From a virus, in the UHGV virus genome UHGV-0131581: DNA of 21,583 bases; one strand, written 5' to 3'. The notes beneath the pieces are model-generated. The model had not been told where the DNA came from. It saw only the letters and a list, made by a program, of their open reading frames with translations, and did not search any database. The position numbers were made by a program, and so were the translations under genes. This document shows, in pieces, positions 4,583 through 19,651 of the stretch. The first letter of the stretch is position 1. Each line of letters starts with the position of its first letter.

Positions 4583-4798
4583 ATGAAAGATATGGAACCC
4601 TTCAAGTGGAACCGCTCCGGAATACCACAACACGGCGAATACCCGGAACCGTATAAAAAGGTCGACGTGATAACAAGAAGCAAAGGACGAGATAAAAGTA
4701 TTAACTCCGGACAAGCGTACTGGAGCGGGTATAAGTGGCAGGGGCTTGATGGCTTTAAGATAGGATATTCCCGTGTAATACGCTGGATTGAATATTGA
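4583..4798 (+). CDS. Hypothetical protein (71 aa)
   Basis: ATG 4583 preceded by GGAGAG (4571-4576); the track's TTG 4565 start is treated as an over-extension. Confidence 0.45.
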   Translation: MKDMEPFKWNRSGIPQHGEYPEPYKKVDVITRSKGRDKSINSGQAYWSGYKWQGLDGFKIGYSRVIRWIEY

Positions 4799-4801
4799 TA
4801 C

Positions 4802-4825
4802 AAGCCCTCTACGGAGGGCTTTTCT
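4802..4825 (+). terminator. Rho-independent terminator
   Basis: AAGCCCTC (4802-4809), loop TACG, GAGGGCTT (4814-4821), then TTCT. Confidence 0.65.
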
Positions 4826-4879
4826 GTACATCCCGCCCAATCCCCTTATATAATCCATTTAGACGCGTAGGGCGCGTCT
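4825..4879 (+). promoter_or_regulatory. Promoter-like element (TGTACA, 18 nt, TATAAT at 4849-4854) followed by a perfect 7-bp hairpin (4861-4879) upstream of the terminase small subunit gene
   Basis: -10 TATAAT read directly; AGACGCG-TAGGG-CGCGTCT palindrome at 4861-4879. Confidence 0.4.
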
Positions 4880-4919
4880 GGTGCGCTCTGATGGTCAGAC
4901 GCATATGCAAGGGGATTCT

Positions 4920-5465
4920 ATGAAGCTGAAACTTAAGCAGCCATCTCCAGAGGTGGTGCAAGCTGCACATGAAGAAGCTGTTAGCGCAAACCGTCGCCGT
5001 AAACGGCCACGCGGTAAACAGAGCCTTTATCAATCATCCCGTAATTCCGCTGCGTTGTGGGACCCGGACTATTGTGACGAATTGATTCGTTTCTTCGACC
5101 GCACGTCATGGGAACTTGTGCCTACGTCTAAGGGCGACGAACGCCCGCTGATTCAGGATAAGCCACCGTCACTGGCCCGCTTCGCCTTACATATCGGCGT
5201 CACTATCCCGATTATCAAGCTGTGGCTGCGCGAGATTCCCGCATTTGCAGAAGCCTATGAAACGGCGCAGGCACTGGAAGAGGCATACTTCACTGAGACA
5301 GGCGCGGTGGGCATATCCGCTACGTTTGCCGCTGCGAAGCTAGGTCTTGGCAAAGAGAAACCGGTTGAATCCACCGAAGAAACAGCACCGACTGAGATTA
5401 TTTTCAGTGTCGCAGAGCCTGTAGGTAAAATCGTAACAACGAACATGGGCGAGGTAGAGGAATGA
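4920..5465 (+). CDS. Terminase small subunit (putative)
   Basis: Immediately upstream of and ATGA-coupled to the large terminase gene; basic N-terminus and HTH-like PSLARFALHIGVTIPIIKLWLREIPAFAEAYE; AAGGGGA RBS before ATG 4920. Track GTG start 4881 is possible but less likely. Confidence 0.5.
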   Translation: MKLKLKQPSPEVVQAAHEEAVSANRRRKRPRGKQSLYQSSRNSAALWDPDYCDELIRFFDRTSWELVPTSKGDERPLIQDKPPSLARFALHIGVTIPIIKLWLREIPAFAEAYETAQALEEAYFTETGAVGISATFAAAKLGLGKEKPVESTEETAPTEIIFSVAEPVGKIVTTNMGEVEE

Positions 5466-6712
5466 GTATTCAGCTATCCGCCCCGCAGGCACTGTTCCTG
5501 AATTGCGATAACAAATACAAGGCCTATGTCGGTGGCTTCGGCAGCGGCAAGACATTTGTTGGCTGTCTGGACCTGCTTACGTTTATGCTCAAGCACCCCG
5601 GTACGCGCCTGGGCTACTTCGGCCCGACCTATCCAGCTATCCGCGACATCTTCTACCCGACATTCGAGGAGGCGGCGAACCTGCTCGGGCTCGATGTGCT
5701 GGTTAAATCCGGCGACAAAGAAGTCGTGGTTACTCGTGGTAAGACGGTGCTCGGTACGGTTATCTGCCGTTCGATGGATAACCCAGGTTCTATCGTTGGT
5801 TTCAAAATCGCGGCTGCGGTCGTGGATGAACTCGATGTATTGAGTCGTGAGAAAGCTGAGCTGGCATGGAACAAAATTGTTGCCCGTATGCGTCTTGTTA
5901 TTCCTGGCGTAACTAACCACATCTCTGTAACCACGACGCCGGAAGGGTTCAAGTTCGTCTTTGCCAAGTTCAAAGATAACCCGACACCGAGTTACTCAAT
6001 GGTGCAGGCTTCAACACACGAGAATGCGCGATTCCTGCCGCCGGATTACATTAGCTCGCTGACAGAGACTTACCCGGCGCAACTGATTAACGCGTATCTG
6101 AATGGTGAGTTCGTCAACCTGACCTCCGGCAGCGTGTATTACGCATACGACCGCCACAAACATCGCAGCAAAGAGACAATTCAACCGGGCGACACGCTGT
6201 ACATCGGCCAGGACTTCAACGTTACTAAGAACGCCAGCGCCGTATATGTGCAACGTAAAGACGGCTGGCACGCGGTGGCAGAACTGAAAGGACTGTTCGA
6301 TACGCCAGATACTGTGCGCGTAATTACCGAGAAGTGGAAGTCGCAAGGCCACCGCATCGTCGTTTATCCCGACGCCAGCGGCAAGAACCGCAAAACCAAC
6401 TCGGCATCAATCTCCGATATTGCATTACTCCAGCAGGCCGGCTTCGATGTTCGCGCTAAATCCGCCAACCCCCCGGTTAAAGACCGTGTTTTAGCCGTGA
6501 ATACCGCACTGGAAAAAGGTAAGCTGTGGGTTAACGACCACTTATGCCCTGAGATAGCTAAGACGCTGGAGCAGCAGGCATACGACGATAACGGGGAGCC
6601 ATCCAAAGATGGCATCATCGACCATATGGCGGATGCTCTCGGCTATCCTGTAGTTTACGAGATGCCAGTGGTCAAACCAGTAATCAACATCCCGGTGACT
6701 TTCGCACTTTAA
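5462..6712 (+). CDS. Terminase large subunit
   Basis: Walker A-type motif VGGFGSGKTF near the N-terminus; 416 aa; positioned directly before the portal gene. Confidence 0.85.
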   Translation: MSIQLSAPQALFLNCDNKYKAYVGGFGSGKTFVGCLDLLTFMLKHPGTRLGYFGPTYPAIRDIFYPTFEEAANLLGLDVLVKSGDKEVVVTRGKTVLGTVICRSMDNPGSIVGFKIAAAVVDELDVLSREKAELAWNKIVARMRLVIPGVTNHISVTTTPEGFKFVFAKFKDNPTPSYSMVQASTHENARFLPPDYISSLTETYPAQLINAYLNGEFVNLTSGSVYYAYDRHKHRSKETIQPGDTLYIGQDFNVTKNASAVYVQRKDGWHAVAELKGLFDTPDTVRVITEKWKSQGHRIVVYPDASGKNRKTNSASISDIALLQQAGFDVRAKSANPPVKDRVLAVNTALEKGKLWVNDHLCPEIAKTLEQQAYDDNGEPSKDGIIDHMADALGYPVVYEMPVVKPVINIPVTFAL

Positions 6713-15232: not shown

Positions 15233-15645
15233 TGGGCTACTTTGAGGACTTAACAAAAGCGTTTGATGTTCCGCTGGTAGCCTTCGGAAACACCAACGGC
15301 ATCAAGGTTGCGCTTGAAAATATCGACGCGCCGACGTCTACCGATACACCGTATCTGGCGAGTTACATGTTGCTGGCGGATACCGAGCAGGCGGATTTGT
15401 TCTTCACAGAACAACGCGCTGGTGTCTATCAGGTCGACATTAACTACGCATCGGTGAAGGGTAGCGCGCCAATCAATAAAATGGCAGACTTACTTAACAC
15501 GGCGTTTAAAGCAGGTAAGTCATTTTCACGTAACGACATCTGCGCCGAGGTTCAATCGGTTAGCCTGGGGCCGCTGATTGTAGAAAACGGATGGGCCAAA
15601 CGACCATTGTCAATTAACTTTATTGCATTCACCAAGAGGCTGTGA
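15229..15645 (+). CDS. Putative tail terminator protein
   Basis: 138-aa protein immediately upstream of and coupled to the major tail protein gene. Position-based. Confidence 0.35.
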   Translation: MMGYFEDLTKAFDVPLVAFGNTNGIKVALENIDAPTSTDTPYLASYMLLADTEQADLFFTEQRAGVYQVDINYASVKGSAPINKMADLLNTAFKAGKSFSRNDICAEVQSVSLGPLIVENGWAKRPLSINFIAFTKRL

Positions 15646-16814
15646 ATATGGCTACAACTCCTTTTAAGGGCGCGAATACCGCGCAATTCTATGTGGCGGA
15701 AGTGACCCCGGGCGTAACACCTGATAACCCGGTCTGGTCGCCGTTGCGCAACACAGGCGGTGTTCCCGCCGTTACCCGCGACACGCTGGCCTCCAACGAA
15801 CTGGACGGCAGCCGTGAAACTACATCCATCCGCACCGGTAACAGGCAGGTTAGCGGGGAATACGCAATTGAGCTTAGCTCGAAAAGCCAGGACGACTGGC
15901 TGGCTGGCGCTTTAGGCTCTACGTGGCAGTCAGGGGCTTCTCTGTCAGGGTTATCGATTACCGTTGCACCGGCGGGTAAGACGTTCACCCGTGCTGATGG
16001 TAGCTTTATTACCGACGGCGTTGAAGTGGGCGACCTGATTGCGTTTACCGACTTAACGGGCGACAACGCTAAGCCGTTTATCGTTACTGCGGTAGAGGCA
16101 CTGGCGGTAACAGGTGCAGGTATCCAGCACACTCTTACCGCGGAGACTGTCACTACCGCGGCCAAAACTGGAGATAAACTGGAAACCGGTAACCAATGTA
16201 AGACGTTCTCTATTCTCACCTGGTACAAAGGCCAGTGCGGAGGGGCCAGTGTATATACGCTGACCAAAGGCGTTGAAGTTTCGGGTTTTACCGTTGAACA
16301 GGCAGTTAATGCGATGGTAACTGGCAGCTTCCCGTTCATCGGTCGCAGTCAGGAGATTCTCACCGAGCAGCCGTCCGGTTCCGACTTCTCTTCCGTTACG
16401 TTTGGTGACGAGCCGTTCTCCTCGGTTGACGTTTCTGTGTTCGATGGGTCTACGCCGTTGCGTTGCGACAGTCTGACCATCACTAACGACAACAGCGCGT
16501 CCGCACAGTTCGAACTCGGCAACACTAACGTGGCCTTTGTGGAACGTAGCCGCGCAGCTAACACATTCTCTATCTCCGGCAAACTGTACGACATGGCTAT
16601 GATTCAGAAGTTTATCAACGAACAGCAGGTAGAGATTAACTCTATTCTGGCTGGGGTAAACGGTGCTATGTCTTTCAGTTTGAAACGCGCAGAGCTTACG
16701 GCGGTTACGCCAGAGATTGGCGGACCTGAGTCAATCACTCAGTCCATTGAAGGACAGTCCACAGGCAATCAATATCAATCATCTATCGTAATTCAACGTA
16801 TTAGTTACGCGTAA
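15642..16814 (+). CDS. Major tail protein
   Basis: 390-aa Thr/Ser/Gly-rich protein preceding the chaperone and tape-measure genes and followed by a strong terminator. Synteny-based. Confidence 0.6.
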   Translation: MNMATTPFKGANTAQFYVAEVTPGVTPDNPVWSPLRNTGGVPAVTRDTLASNELDGSRETTSIRTGNRQVSGEYAIELSSKSQDDWLAGALGSTWQSGASLSGLSITVAPAGKTFTRADGSFITDGVEVGDLIAFTDLTGDNAKPFIVTAVEALAVTGAGIQHTLTAETVTTAAKTGDKLETGNQCKTFSILTWYKGQCGGASVYTLTKGVEVSGFTVEQAVNAMVTGSFPFIGRSQEILTEQPSGSDFSSVTFGDEPFSSVDVSVFDGSTPLRCDSLTITNDNSASAQFELGNTNVAFVERSRAANTFSISGKLYDMAMIQKFINEQQVEINSILAGVNGAMSFSLKRAELTAVTPEIGGPESITQSIEGQSTGNQYQSSIVIQRISYA

Positions 16815-16816
16815 GG

Positions 16817-16840
16817 AAAAGGCCCCGAAAGGGGCCTTTT
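16817..16840. terminator. Bidirectional rho-independent terminator between convergent genes
   Basis: AAAAGGCCCC-GAAA-GGGGCCTTTT: a GC stem with GNRA-type loop flanked by A-run and T-run, so it can terminate from either direction. Confidence 0.8.
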
Positions 16841-16841
16841 C

Positions 16842-17072
16842 TTACTCATCAATATTGCTTCGGTATTCCCGCAACTTCTCCAGACTTTCAATTGCTTCTG
16901 CTAAGTCGGTTACGGTGTCCTTGTGCCCACGTAAACCCATGCACAATAGCTTCTTCAATGCGTGCTGTAACGCCGGGTCGCGGATGTCGAAGGCGCGCAG
17001 CACATCGTAAACGTCTACGGTCATAGTGCTGCCGTGAGTGTTTGTCATTGTGCGGTTGTATTTTGAAGTCAT
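16842..17072 (-). CDS. Small hypothetical protein (76 aa)
   Basis: Minus-strand ORF ATGA-coupled to the HNH gene; contains DVYDVLRAFDIRDPALQHALKKLL. I do not recognise the family with certainty. Confidence 0.5.
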   Translation of the reverse strand: MTSKYNRTMTNTHGSTMTVDVYDVLRAFDIRDPALQHALKKLLCMGLRGHKDTVTDLAEAIESLEKLREYRSNIDE

Positions 17073-17542
17073 TTTCCGTGCCTCTCAGTAAAGTCTTTCT
17101 TTTCTTTGTAAAAACATTCTGCATATCTCACGGCGTCTTCTTTTTGGTCAAAACGCTTGGCTATCCTATTCCCGTTATATTGAATTTGAACGACCCATTT
17201 ACCGTTATATGTTTTACTAACCCCGGTAACACCAGACGAGTTATCCCTGCGCTTTGCTGCATTTTTGCAGTTTATGTGCCGGTCGCACAGTCGAAGATTC
17301 TCTATACGGTTATCGCTTTTCACACCGTTTATATGGTCAATCTCCTTGCCTTCTGGTATAGCTCCGTTAAACATTTCCCATATAATTCTGTGGGCGAATG
17401 TCATTTTTGATCCTAGTTTAGTTCTTACATATCCGCGGTGGTCAACGTACCCTACTTTACGTCCTTTCGGGTACTTAGGGTTTACGCTGTCCTTAGCGTA
17501 AAGATTCCCGTTTTCGTATTCGTAAACGTTATTCCATGTCAA
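17069..17542 (-). CDS. HNH homing endonuclease with AP2-type DNA-binding domain
   Basis: YVDHRGYVR ... IDHINGVKSDNRIENLRLCDRHINCKN (HNH_3-type core) followed by SGVTGVSKTYNGKWVVQIQYNGNRIAKRFDQKEDAVRYAECFY (AP2-like). Confidence 0.85.
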   Translation of the reverse strand: MTWNNVYEYENGNLYAKDSVNPKYPKGRKVGYVDHRGYVRTKLGSKMTFAHRIIWEMFNGAIPEGKEIDHINGVKSDNRIENLRLCDRHINCKNAAKRRDNSSGVTGVSKTYNGKWVVQIQYNGNRIAKRFDQKEDAVRYAECFYKEKKDFTERHGK

Positions 17543-18678
17543 TTTATACCCCCTATCATTTCTGGTGATATTGTGAGGCGTGCCACCTCCCCATATTCTG
17601 CACTATATGTTATCACGTTAGCACTACGGCCAGACATCCAACCCCCTCGCGATGCGTAAGCATCTTTCGCCGCCAGGGTGCGGTGCTGTTCGACTACCAT
17701 ATTACGGCTCTCTACTAGTTTCTGATGATGTAGATGGCCTACATGGGCGTAACTGTATGTGCTTTCACCGAAAGCCTTACGGAATTTAGAAATCATTACT
17801 GACTCTATGGCATCGAATCTCGCACGGTGTCCGTGGTGCATGAACAGCGTAGTTTTTCCATGCTGAACCATCTTGTATACGTCGGGGGAGGTGTCCACAA
17901 ATACGCGAGGTTCGTTGTCATACAATGTGCAGAACATTTCGGCAAGCCATACGGAGCCGACAGGGTCGTGGTTACCTTGGACGATTAAAAGTTTGACTGT
18001 GTGATGTTTAACCAGAGCCATATCAACAACACGGCGTACCATACGAATCATGTAGCGGACCAGTTTCTGATAGCGCGTATCCGCGTCTAACACATGACGT
18101 GACTCAGGTGTAACGGCATCCAGACTATCGAAGTGCGCGAAATCCCCCAGCAGGTTAATAACTCCTGTTCCTGCGTCCGGCGCTTTCTGAAACGCCGCGT
18201 CGAACCATCGAGAGAACAGGTCTTCCGCGATTTTCATATCCCAGTCGTCGCCGCTCTCGTCGGCCCAGGCCAGCATACCGAGATGGAAGTCAGATACCGT
18301 GTAAAGATTGAGTAGTTTATCGTCACGTTTGGCCCGAACGGCTTTAACAGGCGCAACCGGCGTAATCTCTGACTTCATGCCCTCAATTACGGCTTTCATC
18401 AACTCAACCTGACGTTCGGCATCGGTGTCTGTCTTAACCCATTGCAACTTAGTGTTGCCGAACTCGTCTACCAGTGACGACGTCCCTTTAATCTTGTAAC
18501 CGTCTGGTACAAGGTGGCTAACGTCACGCCCGTGGCCCACACCTTTCTTTGCCAGCTTCGCTTTACGGATACGAATAACTCGGTCTGAGATGCCGTATTT
18601 ACGGGCTATATCTATATTCTTCACCCCGGCGTTCAATTCTTCCTGTAATTGTTCGTCGGTTATTTTCTTCCGGGCCAT
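17539..18678 (-). CDS. HTH domain fused to calcineurin-like metallophosphoesterase (379 aa)
   Basis: N-terminal ~45 aa HTH-like (ITDEQLQEELNAGVKNIDIARKYGISDRVIRIRKAKL). Phosphoesterase motifs in order: SDFHLG (D-x-H), LLGDFAHFD (GD..D), VQGNHDP (GNHD), FMHHGH, HVGHLHH (GHxH). GAGGAAG RBS. Confidence 0.75.
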   Translation of the reverse strand: MARKKITDEQLQEELNAGVKNIDIARKYGISDRVIRIRKAKLAKKGVGHGRDVSHLVPDGYKIKGTSSLVDEFGNTKLQWVKTDTDAERQVELMKAVIEGMKSEITPVAPVKAVRAKRDDKLLNLYTVSDFHLGMLAWADESGDDWDMKIAEDLFSRWFDAAFQKAPDAGTGVINLLGDFAHFDSLDAVTPESRHVLDADTRYQKLVRYMIRMVRRVVDMALVKHHTVKLLIVQGNHDPVGSVWLAEMFCTLYDNEPRVFVDTSPDVYKMVQHGKTTLFMHHGHRARFDAIESVMISKFRKAFGESTYSYAHVGHLHHQKLVESRNMVVEQHRTLAAKDAYASRGGWMSGRSANVITYSAEYGEVARLTISPEMIGGIN

Positions 18679-18743: not shown

Positions 18744-19070
18744 CTATTTACTTTCCACGCCTATCGCCCATCCAGTCATTACCATTTGCAGACGAGTAGC
18801 TGTTAGTAGGCTGTAAAACGCGTCCCCGTTTTTCTCTACCGAACGTATTACCGAGTATGTTACGGCTTGTGCAGGTAGACCTGATTTACCAACCTCTACG
18901 GCAGCCTCACATTCACGAACTGTAGAGTCCTTAAATGCCTTTACAATAGTAGGGTCGGCTTTTTCAAGCACGCCAGAAGTCATAAGAACAGACTCACTAA
19001 ATACCTGTTCGCACGGAGACCCAAAAGCGGCAAAAGACATAAACCCCAGAGCTAATACTAATTTACGCAT
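18744..19070 (-). CDS. Secreted/periplasmic hypothetical protein (108 aa, N-terminal signal peptide)
   Basis: MRKLVLALGFMSFAAFGS: basic N-terminus plus hydrophobic core, no lipobox; GAGGAA RBS; first gene of the minus-strand operon. Confidence 0.5.
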   Translation of the reverse strand: MRKLVLALGFMSFAAFGSPCEQVFSESVLMTSGVLEKADPTIVKAFKDSTVRECEAAVEVGKSGLPAQAVTYSVIRSVEKNGDAFYSLLTATRLQMVMTGWAIGVESK

Positions 19071-19087: not shown

Positions 19088-19222
19088 GTTACAGGTGAAT
19101 AGTACCCTATTATATTGGGGTGTGCAAGTAGTGTGCTAGAATAAGTTTGCGCCTAGTGTCGCACACGAAAAGCGGGTGGTTCCCGTCTGGCGCATTTCCC
19201 TTAACCTGTAACCTCTTAACCA
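19088..19222 (+). promoter_or_regulatory. Divergent promoter/operator region between the minus-strand island and the tail chaperone gene
   Basis: GTTACA (19088-19093), 17 nt, TATATT (19111-19116); GTGTGC direct repeats at 19120 and 19131 with inverted copy GCACAC at 19162-19167; TTAACC-TG-TAACC-TC-TTAACC at 19199-19222. Confidence 0.35.
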
Positions 19223-19234
19223 AAGGATTAAAGA

Positions 19235-19651
19235 ATGAAACTTTCTGATTTCTATTTTGCGGACCGCCATGCTGTAGGCACTAAAATGCCTATCCTTCTG
19301 CCGAGTGGTAAAGACTCCGGTGAATGGCTGCAGGTCATCGGCCCTGATTGTGACGCGGGTGTTCGTGCGGGCCGCGCCTACACAACGGCAATTCGACGCC
19401 TTACGGAAGAACTTGCGCCATTAGATAAAGAGTGCGAGGCGCTGAATAACTGGGCACGTTATAACGATGAGAAGGGCTGGCGGGTGATGGACCTGAACAA
19501 GCAGCTTGCCGTGGAAATCGTCACCGGTTGGTCATTCGACGAACCGTTCAGCAAAGAGGCGCTGGCTAACCTGTTTGACCAGTACAGCGGGTTGGCAGAA
19601 GCCGTAGTTAAGCACCACACCGATAGCCGCGAGAAACTCTCGGAAAAGTAA
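19235..19651 (+). CDS. Tail assembly chaperone (G-like)
   Basis: 138-aa acidic protein in the conserved slot upstream of the tape measure gene, with an overlapping -1 frame ORF downstream. Confidence 0.55.
   Translation: MKLSDFYFADRHAVGTKMPILLPSGKDSGEWLQVIGPDCDAGVRAGRAYTTAIRRLTEELAPLDKECEALNNWARYNDEKGWRVMDLNKQLAVEIVTGWSFDEPFSKEALANLFDQYSGLAEAVVKHHTDSREKLSEK

Follow-up and report, generated by a model that had tools for sequence, protein, structure and literature searches.

The window analysed here is a 21,583-nucleotide (nt) stretch of DNA from the virus genome UHGV-0131581, and its subject is a short leftward gene at positions 17069–17542, the product of which is a putative HNH-AP2 homing endonuclease. 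Beyond position ~950, the window consists of a siphophage genome of Kagunavirus-like type (Guernseyvirinae), and its best full-length matches are E. coli phages with ~88–90% identity. The endonuclease gene belongs to a leftward module of four genes, ordered as a 108-amino-acid (aa) open reading frame (ORF), a phosphoesterase gene, the HNH gene, and a 76-aa ORF. The features of the locus, in window coordinates, are as follows.

15642–16814: tail tube gene (Pfam Phage_tube_2)
16816–16841, no strand: perfect hairpin with an 11-bp stem and a 4-nt loop, bidirectional terminator-like, from an inverted-repeat search
16842–17072, minus strand: 76-aa ORF 3′ of the endonuclease gene (phrog_2452, a family with no assigned function)
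17069–17542, minus strand: putative free-standing HNH-AP2 homing endonuclease gene, a 157-aa ORF with a TTG start
17543–17553, minus strand: cassette-derived junction, comprising a GGGGG ribosome-binding site (RBS, 17549–17553) and the extra codons G-I-N, from the sequence and allele comparison
17539–18678, minus strand: metallophosphoesterase-like gene, 379 aa, PHROG "DNA repair exonuclease" (phrog_704, 5.8e-162)
18744–19070, minus strand: 108-aa ORF, first in the leftward module (phrog_14165)
19235–19651: tail assembly chaperone gene (Pfam Phage_TAC_4)

The TTG start of the endonuclease gene overlaps the TGA stop of the upstream 379-aa phosphoesterase gene (TTGA), its own TGA stop shares bases with the ATG of the 76-aa ORF that follows (ATGA), and the GGGGG Shine–Dalgarno sequence lies 6 nt 5′ of the TTG. 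With a start codon and an RBS of its own, the gene forms an independent ORF, situated outside any intron or intein. The protein matches the PHROG family phrog_99 ("HNH endonuclease") at 1e-48 and has 269 homologues at E ≤ 1e-5 in a large protein collection. All alleles compared from isolates and metagenomes (12/12) are full length with an identical TTG start, and the ratio of nonsynonymous to synonymous polymorphism (pN/pS) among them is 0.13–0.19. Together, the full-length alleles, the low pN/pS, and the family matches and homologues point to a real gene under purifying selection, and a chance ORF at 17069–17542 is ruled out by the first two. The GC content of the gene is 42%, compared with ~50–55% in the flanks. 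An exact-sequence look-up of the window's endonuclease protein matched no record; P0001, a 97%-identical cluster representative, stood in for it in look-ups.

Two domains are assigned to the protein.

17270–17398, minus strand: HNH_3 (beta-beta-alpha-metal) nuclease core, residues 49–91, assigned by Pfam, with catalytic D69, H70, N82, and N91
17102–17236, minus strand: AP2-like DNA-binding domain, residues ~103–147, assigned from AlphaFold2 strands and helix, Foldseek, profile, and relatives

The match of Pfam HNH_3 (PF13392) to residues 49–91 has an E-value of 2.5e-21 and scores 75.5 bits against a cut-off of 24.8. I-HmuI (PDB 1U3E) is found by phmmer at 2.8e-4 and by the profile of a 49-sequence family alignment at 3.5e-9. 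In both the phmmer and the family-profile alignments, D69, H70, N82, and N91 pair with D74, H75, N87, and N96 of I-HmuI, in which D74 and N96 are metal ligands, H75 is the general base, and N87 is structural. Within the family alignment, no variation is seen at H51, D69, H70, N82, R84, or N94, and N78 and N91 are kept in at least 90% of the sequences. The C-terminal part of the AlphaFold2 model (mean predicted local distance difference test score, pLDDT, 89.7) contains three strands (residues 108–110, 116–122, and 125–131) followed by a helix (residues 134–147). The top Foldseek match of the model is I-HmuI (1u3e, E = 4e-4), and the AP2 domain of TEM1 comes next (probability 0.99–1.00, root-mean-square deviation 1.4–1.7 Å over 34–41 residues); further matches are apicomplexan AP2 (ApiAP2) domains and the N-terminal domain of lambda Int. 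The Pfam AP2 family (PF00847) is matched by 20 of the 49 aligned relatives in the same columns, with a best value of 9.9e-9, and the family profile matches the AP2/ERF chains WRI1 (E = 0.0024) and TEM1 (E = 0.009) at profile positions ~101–146.

The sequence-only reading had proposed an HNH-AP2 homing endonuclease within the structural gene block. The ORF is borne out with exact coordinates, strand (minus), and length (157 aa), and its placement between the tail tube and chaperone genes is correct. The HNH half of the label is confirmed by Pfam itself; the AP2 half is carried by the family profile, the relatives, and the fold, but not by a direct Pfam match, and the label appears acceptable at the level of fold and family, judging from alignment and the predicted model. 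Loss or disruption of the catalytic residues, which that reading had regarded as fatal to it, is not seen: all of them are intact and vary little or not at all within the family.

At ≥94% nucleotide identity, the endonuclease gene occurs in 8 of 50,697 phage records, namely the CTH7 group (six records), S4lw, and fPSFA. The genus-assigned carriers all belong to Jerseyvirus, the gene always occupies the same slot, and none of the deposited Kagunavirus genomes among these records carries it. Nine independent metagenomic contigs also contain the endonuclease (97% aa identity) in the same phosphoesterase–HNH–ORF76 arrangement. The carriers represent 8 of ~394 locus-bearing records, and ~98% of the Guernseyvirinae records retain the phosphoesterase without the endonuclease. 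A precise empty site exists in XY2, Bas73, pink, and AG11, in which the empty and filled junctions can be aligned to the base. The slot 3′ of the phosphoesterase gene has at least four states: empty (as in XY2 and Bas73), this HNH gene, a 37%-identical HNH gene, and a polynucleotide kinase gene (pnk) with an ATP-binding gene (as in K1H). The 37%-identical, HNH-AP2-type gene fills the slot of some Kagunaviruses, namely that of NTEC3 (L002, 1788–2258) and also those of SCS92, 590B, and AV104. The phosphoesterase of NTEC3 has a divergent 3′ allele, with 64–80% identity to XY2 over gene nt 700–1143, and a second HNH gene accompanied by its own phosphoesterase allele suggests that independent nuclease lineages compete for the slot.

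The position of the gene among morphogenesis genes would suit a packaging cofactor, that is, an HNH protein like gp74 of HK97 that aids the terminase. However, the large terminase gene (5462–6712) is more than 10 kb distant, the protein is HNH_3/I-HmuI-like with an AP2 domain, and the sporadic distribution effectively refutes such a role, as the gene is missing from ~98% of the relatives, which package DNA without it; the probability of this explanation is negligible.

The filled and empty alleles differ in a defined manner at the junction. In endonuclease-free alleles of both genera, the sequence reads ...CCGGAGATGCTGGG|ATGAC..., the phosphoesterase ends in ...PEMLG*, and its stop codon overlaps the ATG of the 76-aa ORF. 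In carrier alleles, it reads ...CCAGAAATGATAGG-GGGTATAAATTG[HNH]...AAAATGAC..., and the phosphoesterase ends in ...PEMIGGIN*. Because the two ends differ in this way, the cassette is seen to supply three extra phosphoesterase codons that contain its own RBS. Junction alignment and a repeat search found neither a target duplication nor terminal inverted repeats at the insertion, which rules out a transposon or an insertion sequence-like event.

The surroundings of the gene have a mosaic structure. Across the tail genes, the window is 90–100% identical to Kagunavirus relatives and 50–75% identical to Jerseyviruses. Across the HNH gene, the window is 98–100% identical to CTH7, with 4 differences in 474 nt, and the best carrier identity is 99.2%. 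The same relationship extends into the phosphoesterase gene, the 3′ part of which (~540 nt) has 65–80% identity to endonuclease-free Kagunaviruses and 90–99% to Jerseyvirus carriers. This part is designated the H allele.

17539–18079, minus strand: co-converted 3′ end of the phosphoesterase gene, carrying the H allele of all carriers in two genera, delimited by sliding identity and diagnostic sites

Diagnostic sites are those at which three endonuclease-free Kagunaviruses all have one base and two Jerseyvirus carriers both have another. As far as gene nt 582 (window 18097), 91 of 97 such sites are Kagunavirus-type, 3 are carrier-type, and 3 are other; from gene nt 600 (window 18079) to the stop codon, 52 of 54 are carrier-type, with 1 Kagunavirus-type and 1 other (Fisher p = 6.5e-35, for a breakpoint picked post hoc). 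These sites place the phosphoesterase breakpoint of the window at 18079–18097. Beyond the endonuclease gene, the window's 76-aa ORF is Kagunavirus-type almost from its ATG onward and therefore marks the other edge of the imported block. The switches of site type on both sides delimit this block to ~17069–18079, ~1.0 kb. Both edges fall in stretches conserved across the genera, namely phosphoesterase nt ~540–660, which includes at least 20 nt identical in 9 of 9 sequences compared, and the initial ~36 nt of the 76-aa ORF. The metagenomic contigs L011 and L012, the only two tested, have a Kagunavirus-type phosphoesterase 5′ part and the same breakpoint pattern as the window. Up to gene nt 558, S4lw and CTH7 carry the allele type of pink and AG11, which are their endonuclease-free relatives; from gene nt 575, they carry the H allele.

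The mobilisation of neighbouring DNA, which the sequence-only reading had attributed to the endonuclease, is supported by an identity peak of 99–100% against flanks of 50–75% together with the ~0.54-kb co-converted tract. Its further proposal of a recently acquired mobile cassette stands in part: it describes the endonuclease gene with the 3′ half of the phosphoesterase gene, but not the phosphoesterase gene or the leftward module, which are conserved residents of Guernseyvirinae. Universal conservation at the locus, which would have spoken against a mobile gene, is far from the case, with ~8 of ~394 records carrying the gene and close relatives having the precise empty site. The comparison with endonuclease-free relatives that it had proposed as a check reveals a presence/absence polymorphism with an intact empty site.

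The occupant of the slot 3′ of the phosphoesterase gene is, on these sequence comparisons, probably a free-standing HNH-AP2 homing endonuclease gene spread by homing with co-conversion, and the phosphoesterase gene is the resident host gene and the probable homing target. The block appears to have been copied recently from Salmonella-type (Jerseyvirus) phages into an E. coli-type phage, the direction of transfer being deduced from the comparison. The process would begin with a carrier phage and an endonuclease-free relative co-infecting one cell. The enzyme would bind DNA via its AP2-like domain, and its I-HmuI-like HNH site would nick or cut the endonuclease-free allele at some point in the interval that runs from phosphoesterase nt ~600 to where the 76-aa ORF begins. 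The lesion would then be resected and repaired from the carrier genome as a template, and repair would copy the endonuclease gene together with ~0.54 kb of the donor phosphoesterase 3′ end. The exchange would resolve in the nearest conserved stretches, phosphoesterase nt ~540–660 and, across the endonuclease gene, the opening ~36 nt of the 76-aa ORF, and would leave the ~1.0-kb block (17069 to ~18079) that the window has in common with the Jerseyvirus carriers inside a Kagunavirus-like genome.

Cleavage activity, the cut site, and the choice between a nick and a double-strand cut are predictions from sequence. Because the tract is one-sided, the cut is more likely to fall within the neighbouring gene than at the site of insertion. 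I-HmuI nicks in a strand-specific manner, and since it is the closest solved relative, a nick-initiated pathway is possible. The predicted cleavage interval in endonuclease-free relatives, placed by the sequence-only reading near the major tail/chaperone junction, narrows to the interval from phosphoesterase nt ~600 through the start of the 76-aa ORF. Every endonuclease-free allele in the two genera conserves three 20-nt windows, which show 4–6 fixed differences, mostly synonymous, in all carriers. They are no more than candidates for target or immunity determinants.

Candidate window 1, at the junction: TTTCACCGGAGATGCTGGGATGAC
Candidate window 2, phosphoesterase gene nt 947–970, encoding the LHHQK motif region: TGCACCACCAGAAGATTGTAGAAAGCCG
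Candidate window 3, phosphoesterase gene nt 889–910: GCCAAGTTCCGCAAAGCGTTCGG

Several observations weigh against homing with co-conversion by an HNH-AP2 enzyme. The endonuclease protein itself has no match to Pfam AP2 (PF00847), even at E ≤ 10. For the window alone, and given the chimeric join at position 948, an assembly chimera joined at the two conserved breakpoints is conceivable; against such a chimera, L011 and L012 share the breakpoint pattern, and the cultured phages S4lw and CTH7 switch to the H allele at the same position. As for phage genomes in general, they are mosaic, and similar breakpoints could arise where conserved stretches recombine by the ordinary homologous route. Finally, a portion of the H allele occurs in the Kagunavirus AMO_3701M, from which the endonuclease gene is absent. 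Its locus (L009, 2992–4125) has the pnk/ATP-binding arrangement without an HNH gene, and its phosphoesterase, annotated as two coding sequences, is carrier-type at nt 600–900 (90–96% identity to the window) and then XY2-type near the 3′ end. The H allele can therefore exist independently of the endonuclease, and the AMO_3701M allele may be either the footprint of an endonuclease loss or the source of the H allele.

A rival explanation would make the gene an accessory occupant of a hypervariable slot, carried with its neighbourhood as passive cargo through ordinary homologous exchange among co-infecting Guernseyvirinae, without the involvement of its own nuclease. The slot is a mosaic hot spot with four or more occupancy states, AMO_3701M has a partial H allele, and the breakpoints lie in conserved stretches, where any recombination would resolve; the 76-aa ORF of CTH7 is itself chimeric. 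Against this explanation, the catalytic residues and the whole endonuclease ORF are under purifying selection, and the identity peak is centred on the endonuclease gene. In addition, the same lineage is tied to the same target gene across unrelated families with differing synteny, and the second, unrelated HNH lineage in the slot (NTEC3) brings its own divergent phosphoesterase 3′ allele, which nuclease-driven exchange would predict. Passive transfer is accordingly regarded as unlikely. As separate observations at the locus of CTH7 (L004, 1989–3004), the 76-aa ORF consists of a Jerseyvirus-type 5′ third and Kagunavirus-type 3′ two-thirds, and an extra Roi-like DNA-binding gene lies between the 76-aa ORF and the tail tube gene, which adds to the mosaicism there.

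The homing interpretation also draws on the distribution of related enzymes. All examined relatives with ≥53% identity to the endonuclease lie directly 3′ of an orthologous phosphoesterase, which has 42–50% aa identity to that of the window.

Linked relatives in isolates: BEK1-1 (Drexlerviridae, Braunvirinae), Sf12 (Drexlerviridae, Rogunavirinae), and the Klebsiella phage BUCT_49532 (Jedunavirus)
Linked relatives in metagenomes: three T1-like contigs and the IMG/VR loci L031 and L032

Among IMG/VR relatives with ≤49% identity, 1 of 78 is directly downstream of a phosphoesterase and 2 of 78 have one elsewhere within 3 kb; a relative with 40% identity (P0040) adjoins replication genes. In these linked phages, the pairs adjoin lysis or early genes rather than tail genes, so that only the phosphoesterase–HNH pairing itself is conserved. 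In the Sf12 group, the endonuclease is sporadic, and the phosphoesterase region of Sf12 has no megablast-level match to most relatives. These comparisons suggest a target-specialised HNH-AP2 sublineage that may have followed one metallophosphoesterase gene across phage families. In three Drexlerviridae-like contigs (L022, L024, and L025), the phosphoesterase and HNH genes are separated by 69–76 nt, and the spacer contains a hairpin. The T1-like contig L022, which carries a 64%-identical relative, also contains a second HNH_3 gene of 176 aa (4766–5296, minus strand) ~1.8 kb downstream, adjoining a DUF3987 gene, and these phages can thus have multiple endonuclease genes per genome.

Such recurrent adjacency might alternatively result from selection for co-expression, with the HNH-AP2 protein cooperating with the adjacent Mre11/SbcD-like phosphoesterase as a functional partner, for instance in the processing of DNA ends, degradation of host DNA, or counter-defence. 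The order of phosphoesterase then HNH gene is kept in several phage families, and the overlapping stop and start codons in the window suggest translational coupling. Nevertheless, the phosphoesterase occurs without the endonuclease in ~98% of Guernseyvirinae records, the genes in L022, L024, and L025 are uncoupled because of the hairpin-containing spacer, and the co-conversion signature and low GC content are typical of a selfish insert, which makes a partnership quite improbable. No more can be granted to the stronger version, in which the gene pair of Guernseyvirinae, Drexlerviridae, and Jedunavirus is a selected nuclease module and the phosphoesterase processes nicks or breaks made by a sequence-specific HNH-AP2 protein; such a module would serve, for example, recombination-dependent replication, host DNA breakdown, or counter-defence. 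A homing lineage specialised on the phosphoesterase is simpler than a selected two-gene module and is favoured.

The remaining genes of the leftward module belong to the resident genome. Conservation of the module, phosphoesterase gene included, extends to ~394 records from Kagunavirus and Jerseyvirus, and the module was therefore not recently acquired. The Metallophos_2 and Metallophos matches in the phosphoesterase fall below the Pfam curated cut-offs. The N-terminal ~50 residues of this protein (MARKKITDEQLQEELNAGVKNIDIARKYGISDRVIRIRKAKLAKKG) have a helix-turn-helix appearance and are kept in the Drexlerviridae and Jedunavirus orthologues. In several longer PHROG families (phrog_2452, positions 150–220 of 235; phrog_17613 "ATPase", positions 172–237 of 246), the 76-aa ORF aligns only to ~70 residues at the C-terminal end, and it may be what is left of a larger protein or a version that stands alone. 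Derivation from the K1H-type "ATP-binding protein" is ruled out by the absence of similarity to the K1H or AMO proteins, and this dissimilarity indicates that K1H carries a different gene set in the slot. The leftward module ends at the hairpin (16816–16841), which separates it from the convergent tail tube gene. A promoter and terminator scan around the module found nothing above chance, and a promoter-like site at 19099–19072 is also at the chance level.

At its left end, the contig is of a different origin. Positions 1–948 are bacterial, containing the 3′ end of smpB (1–130) and the 5′ part of secY, and are 98.2% identical to a Kiritimatiellota metagenome-assembled genome (MAG; CAKTUI010000009.1) and 96.9% identical to a Verrucomicrobiota MAG. 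The identity stops abruptly inside secY, which indicates at least one chimeric join in the contig, and an assembly chimera at position 948 is most likely. A "phage-encoded SecY" (ORF 183–1193, 336 aa) is ruled out as read-through from bacterial DNA across the chimeric junction.

As a natural record of what is probably homing between phage genera, the locus is unusually clean, with breakpoints resolved to within ~20 nt, and it illustrates how a selfish nuclease can carry alleles across genus boundaries inside a morphogenesis region, which is relevant to phage taxonomy, mosaicism, and the stability of therapeutic phage genomes. A sublineage behind the same metallophosphoesterase in at least four phage groups provides a defined substrate for studying the DNA specificity of phage AP2 domains. 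A literature search found no description of this endonuclease–phosphoesterase association, and the Guernseyvirinae literature found mentions homing endonucleases merely in passing. The transfer between Jerseyvirus and a Kagunavirus-like phage and the sublineage specialised on one metallophosphoesterase gene are modestly new; the locus opens no new class of biology.

In comparison with known systems, I-HmuI of the Bacillus phage SPO1 is the best match in both sequence and fold, sharing the N-terminal beta-hairpin region and the HNH_3 core with its D-H...N...N active-site residues, over only residues ~1–100 of the endonuclease. However, I-HmuI is intron-encoded with a helical C-terminal DNA-binding part, whereas the gene in the window is free-standing and its protein has an AP2-like domain. 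HNH-AP2 homing endonucleases are an established class, according to the account of Magnani, Sjolander & Hake (2004) cited in PMC10448857, and the "IPA-HNH" genes of vibriophage ICP1 encode HNH-AP2 endonucleases (Barth et al. 2023, PMC10448857). For ICP1 and other phages, there are also descriptions of nuclease genes situated where recombination blocks meet (Barth et al. 2023, PMC10448857). The IPA-HNH genes resemble the gene in the window in being phage-borne and free-standing, in combining an N-terminal HNH with a C-terminal AP2 domain, and in lying at a recombination-block boundary. They differ in their host phages (here Guernseyvirinae and Drexlerviridae) and in the target gene, and their HNH domain is too divergent for Pfam HNH_3 (PMC10448857), whereas here HNH_3 is strong and AP2 escapes Pfam. 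The Seg enzymes (Kadyrov et al. 1997, as cited in PMC10448857) are likewise intergenic and free-standing and, by that account, are inherited together with flanking markers of the neighbouring gene. Seg enzymes are GIY-YIG rather than HNH nucleases, and their homing, as cited there, has been demonstrated genetically and biochemically, whereas homing of the endonuclease in the window is deduced from comparative genomics.

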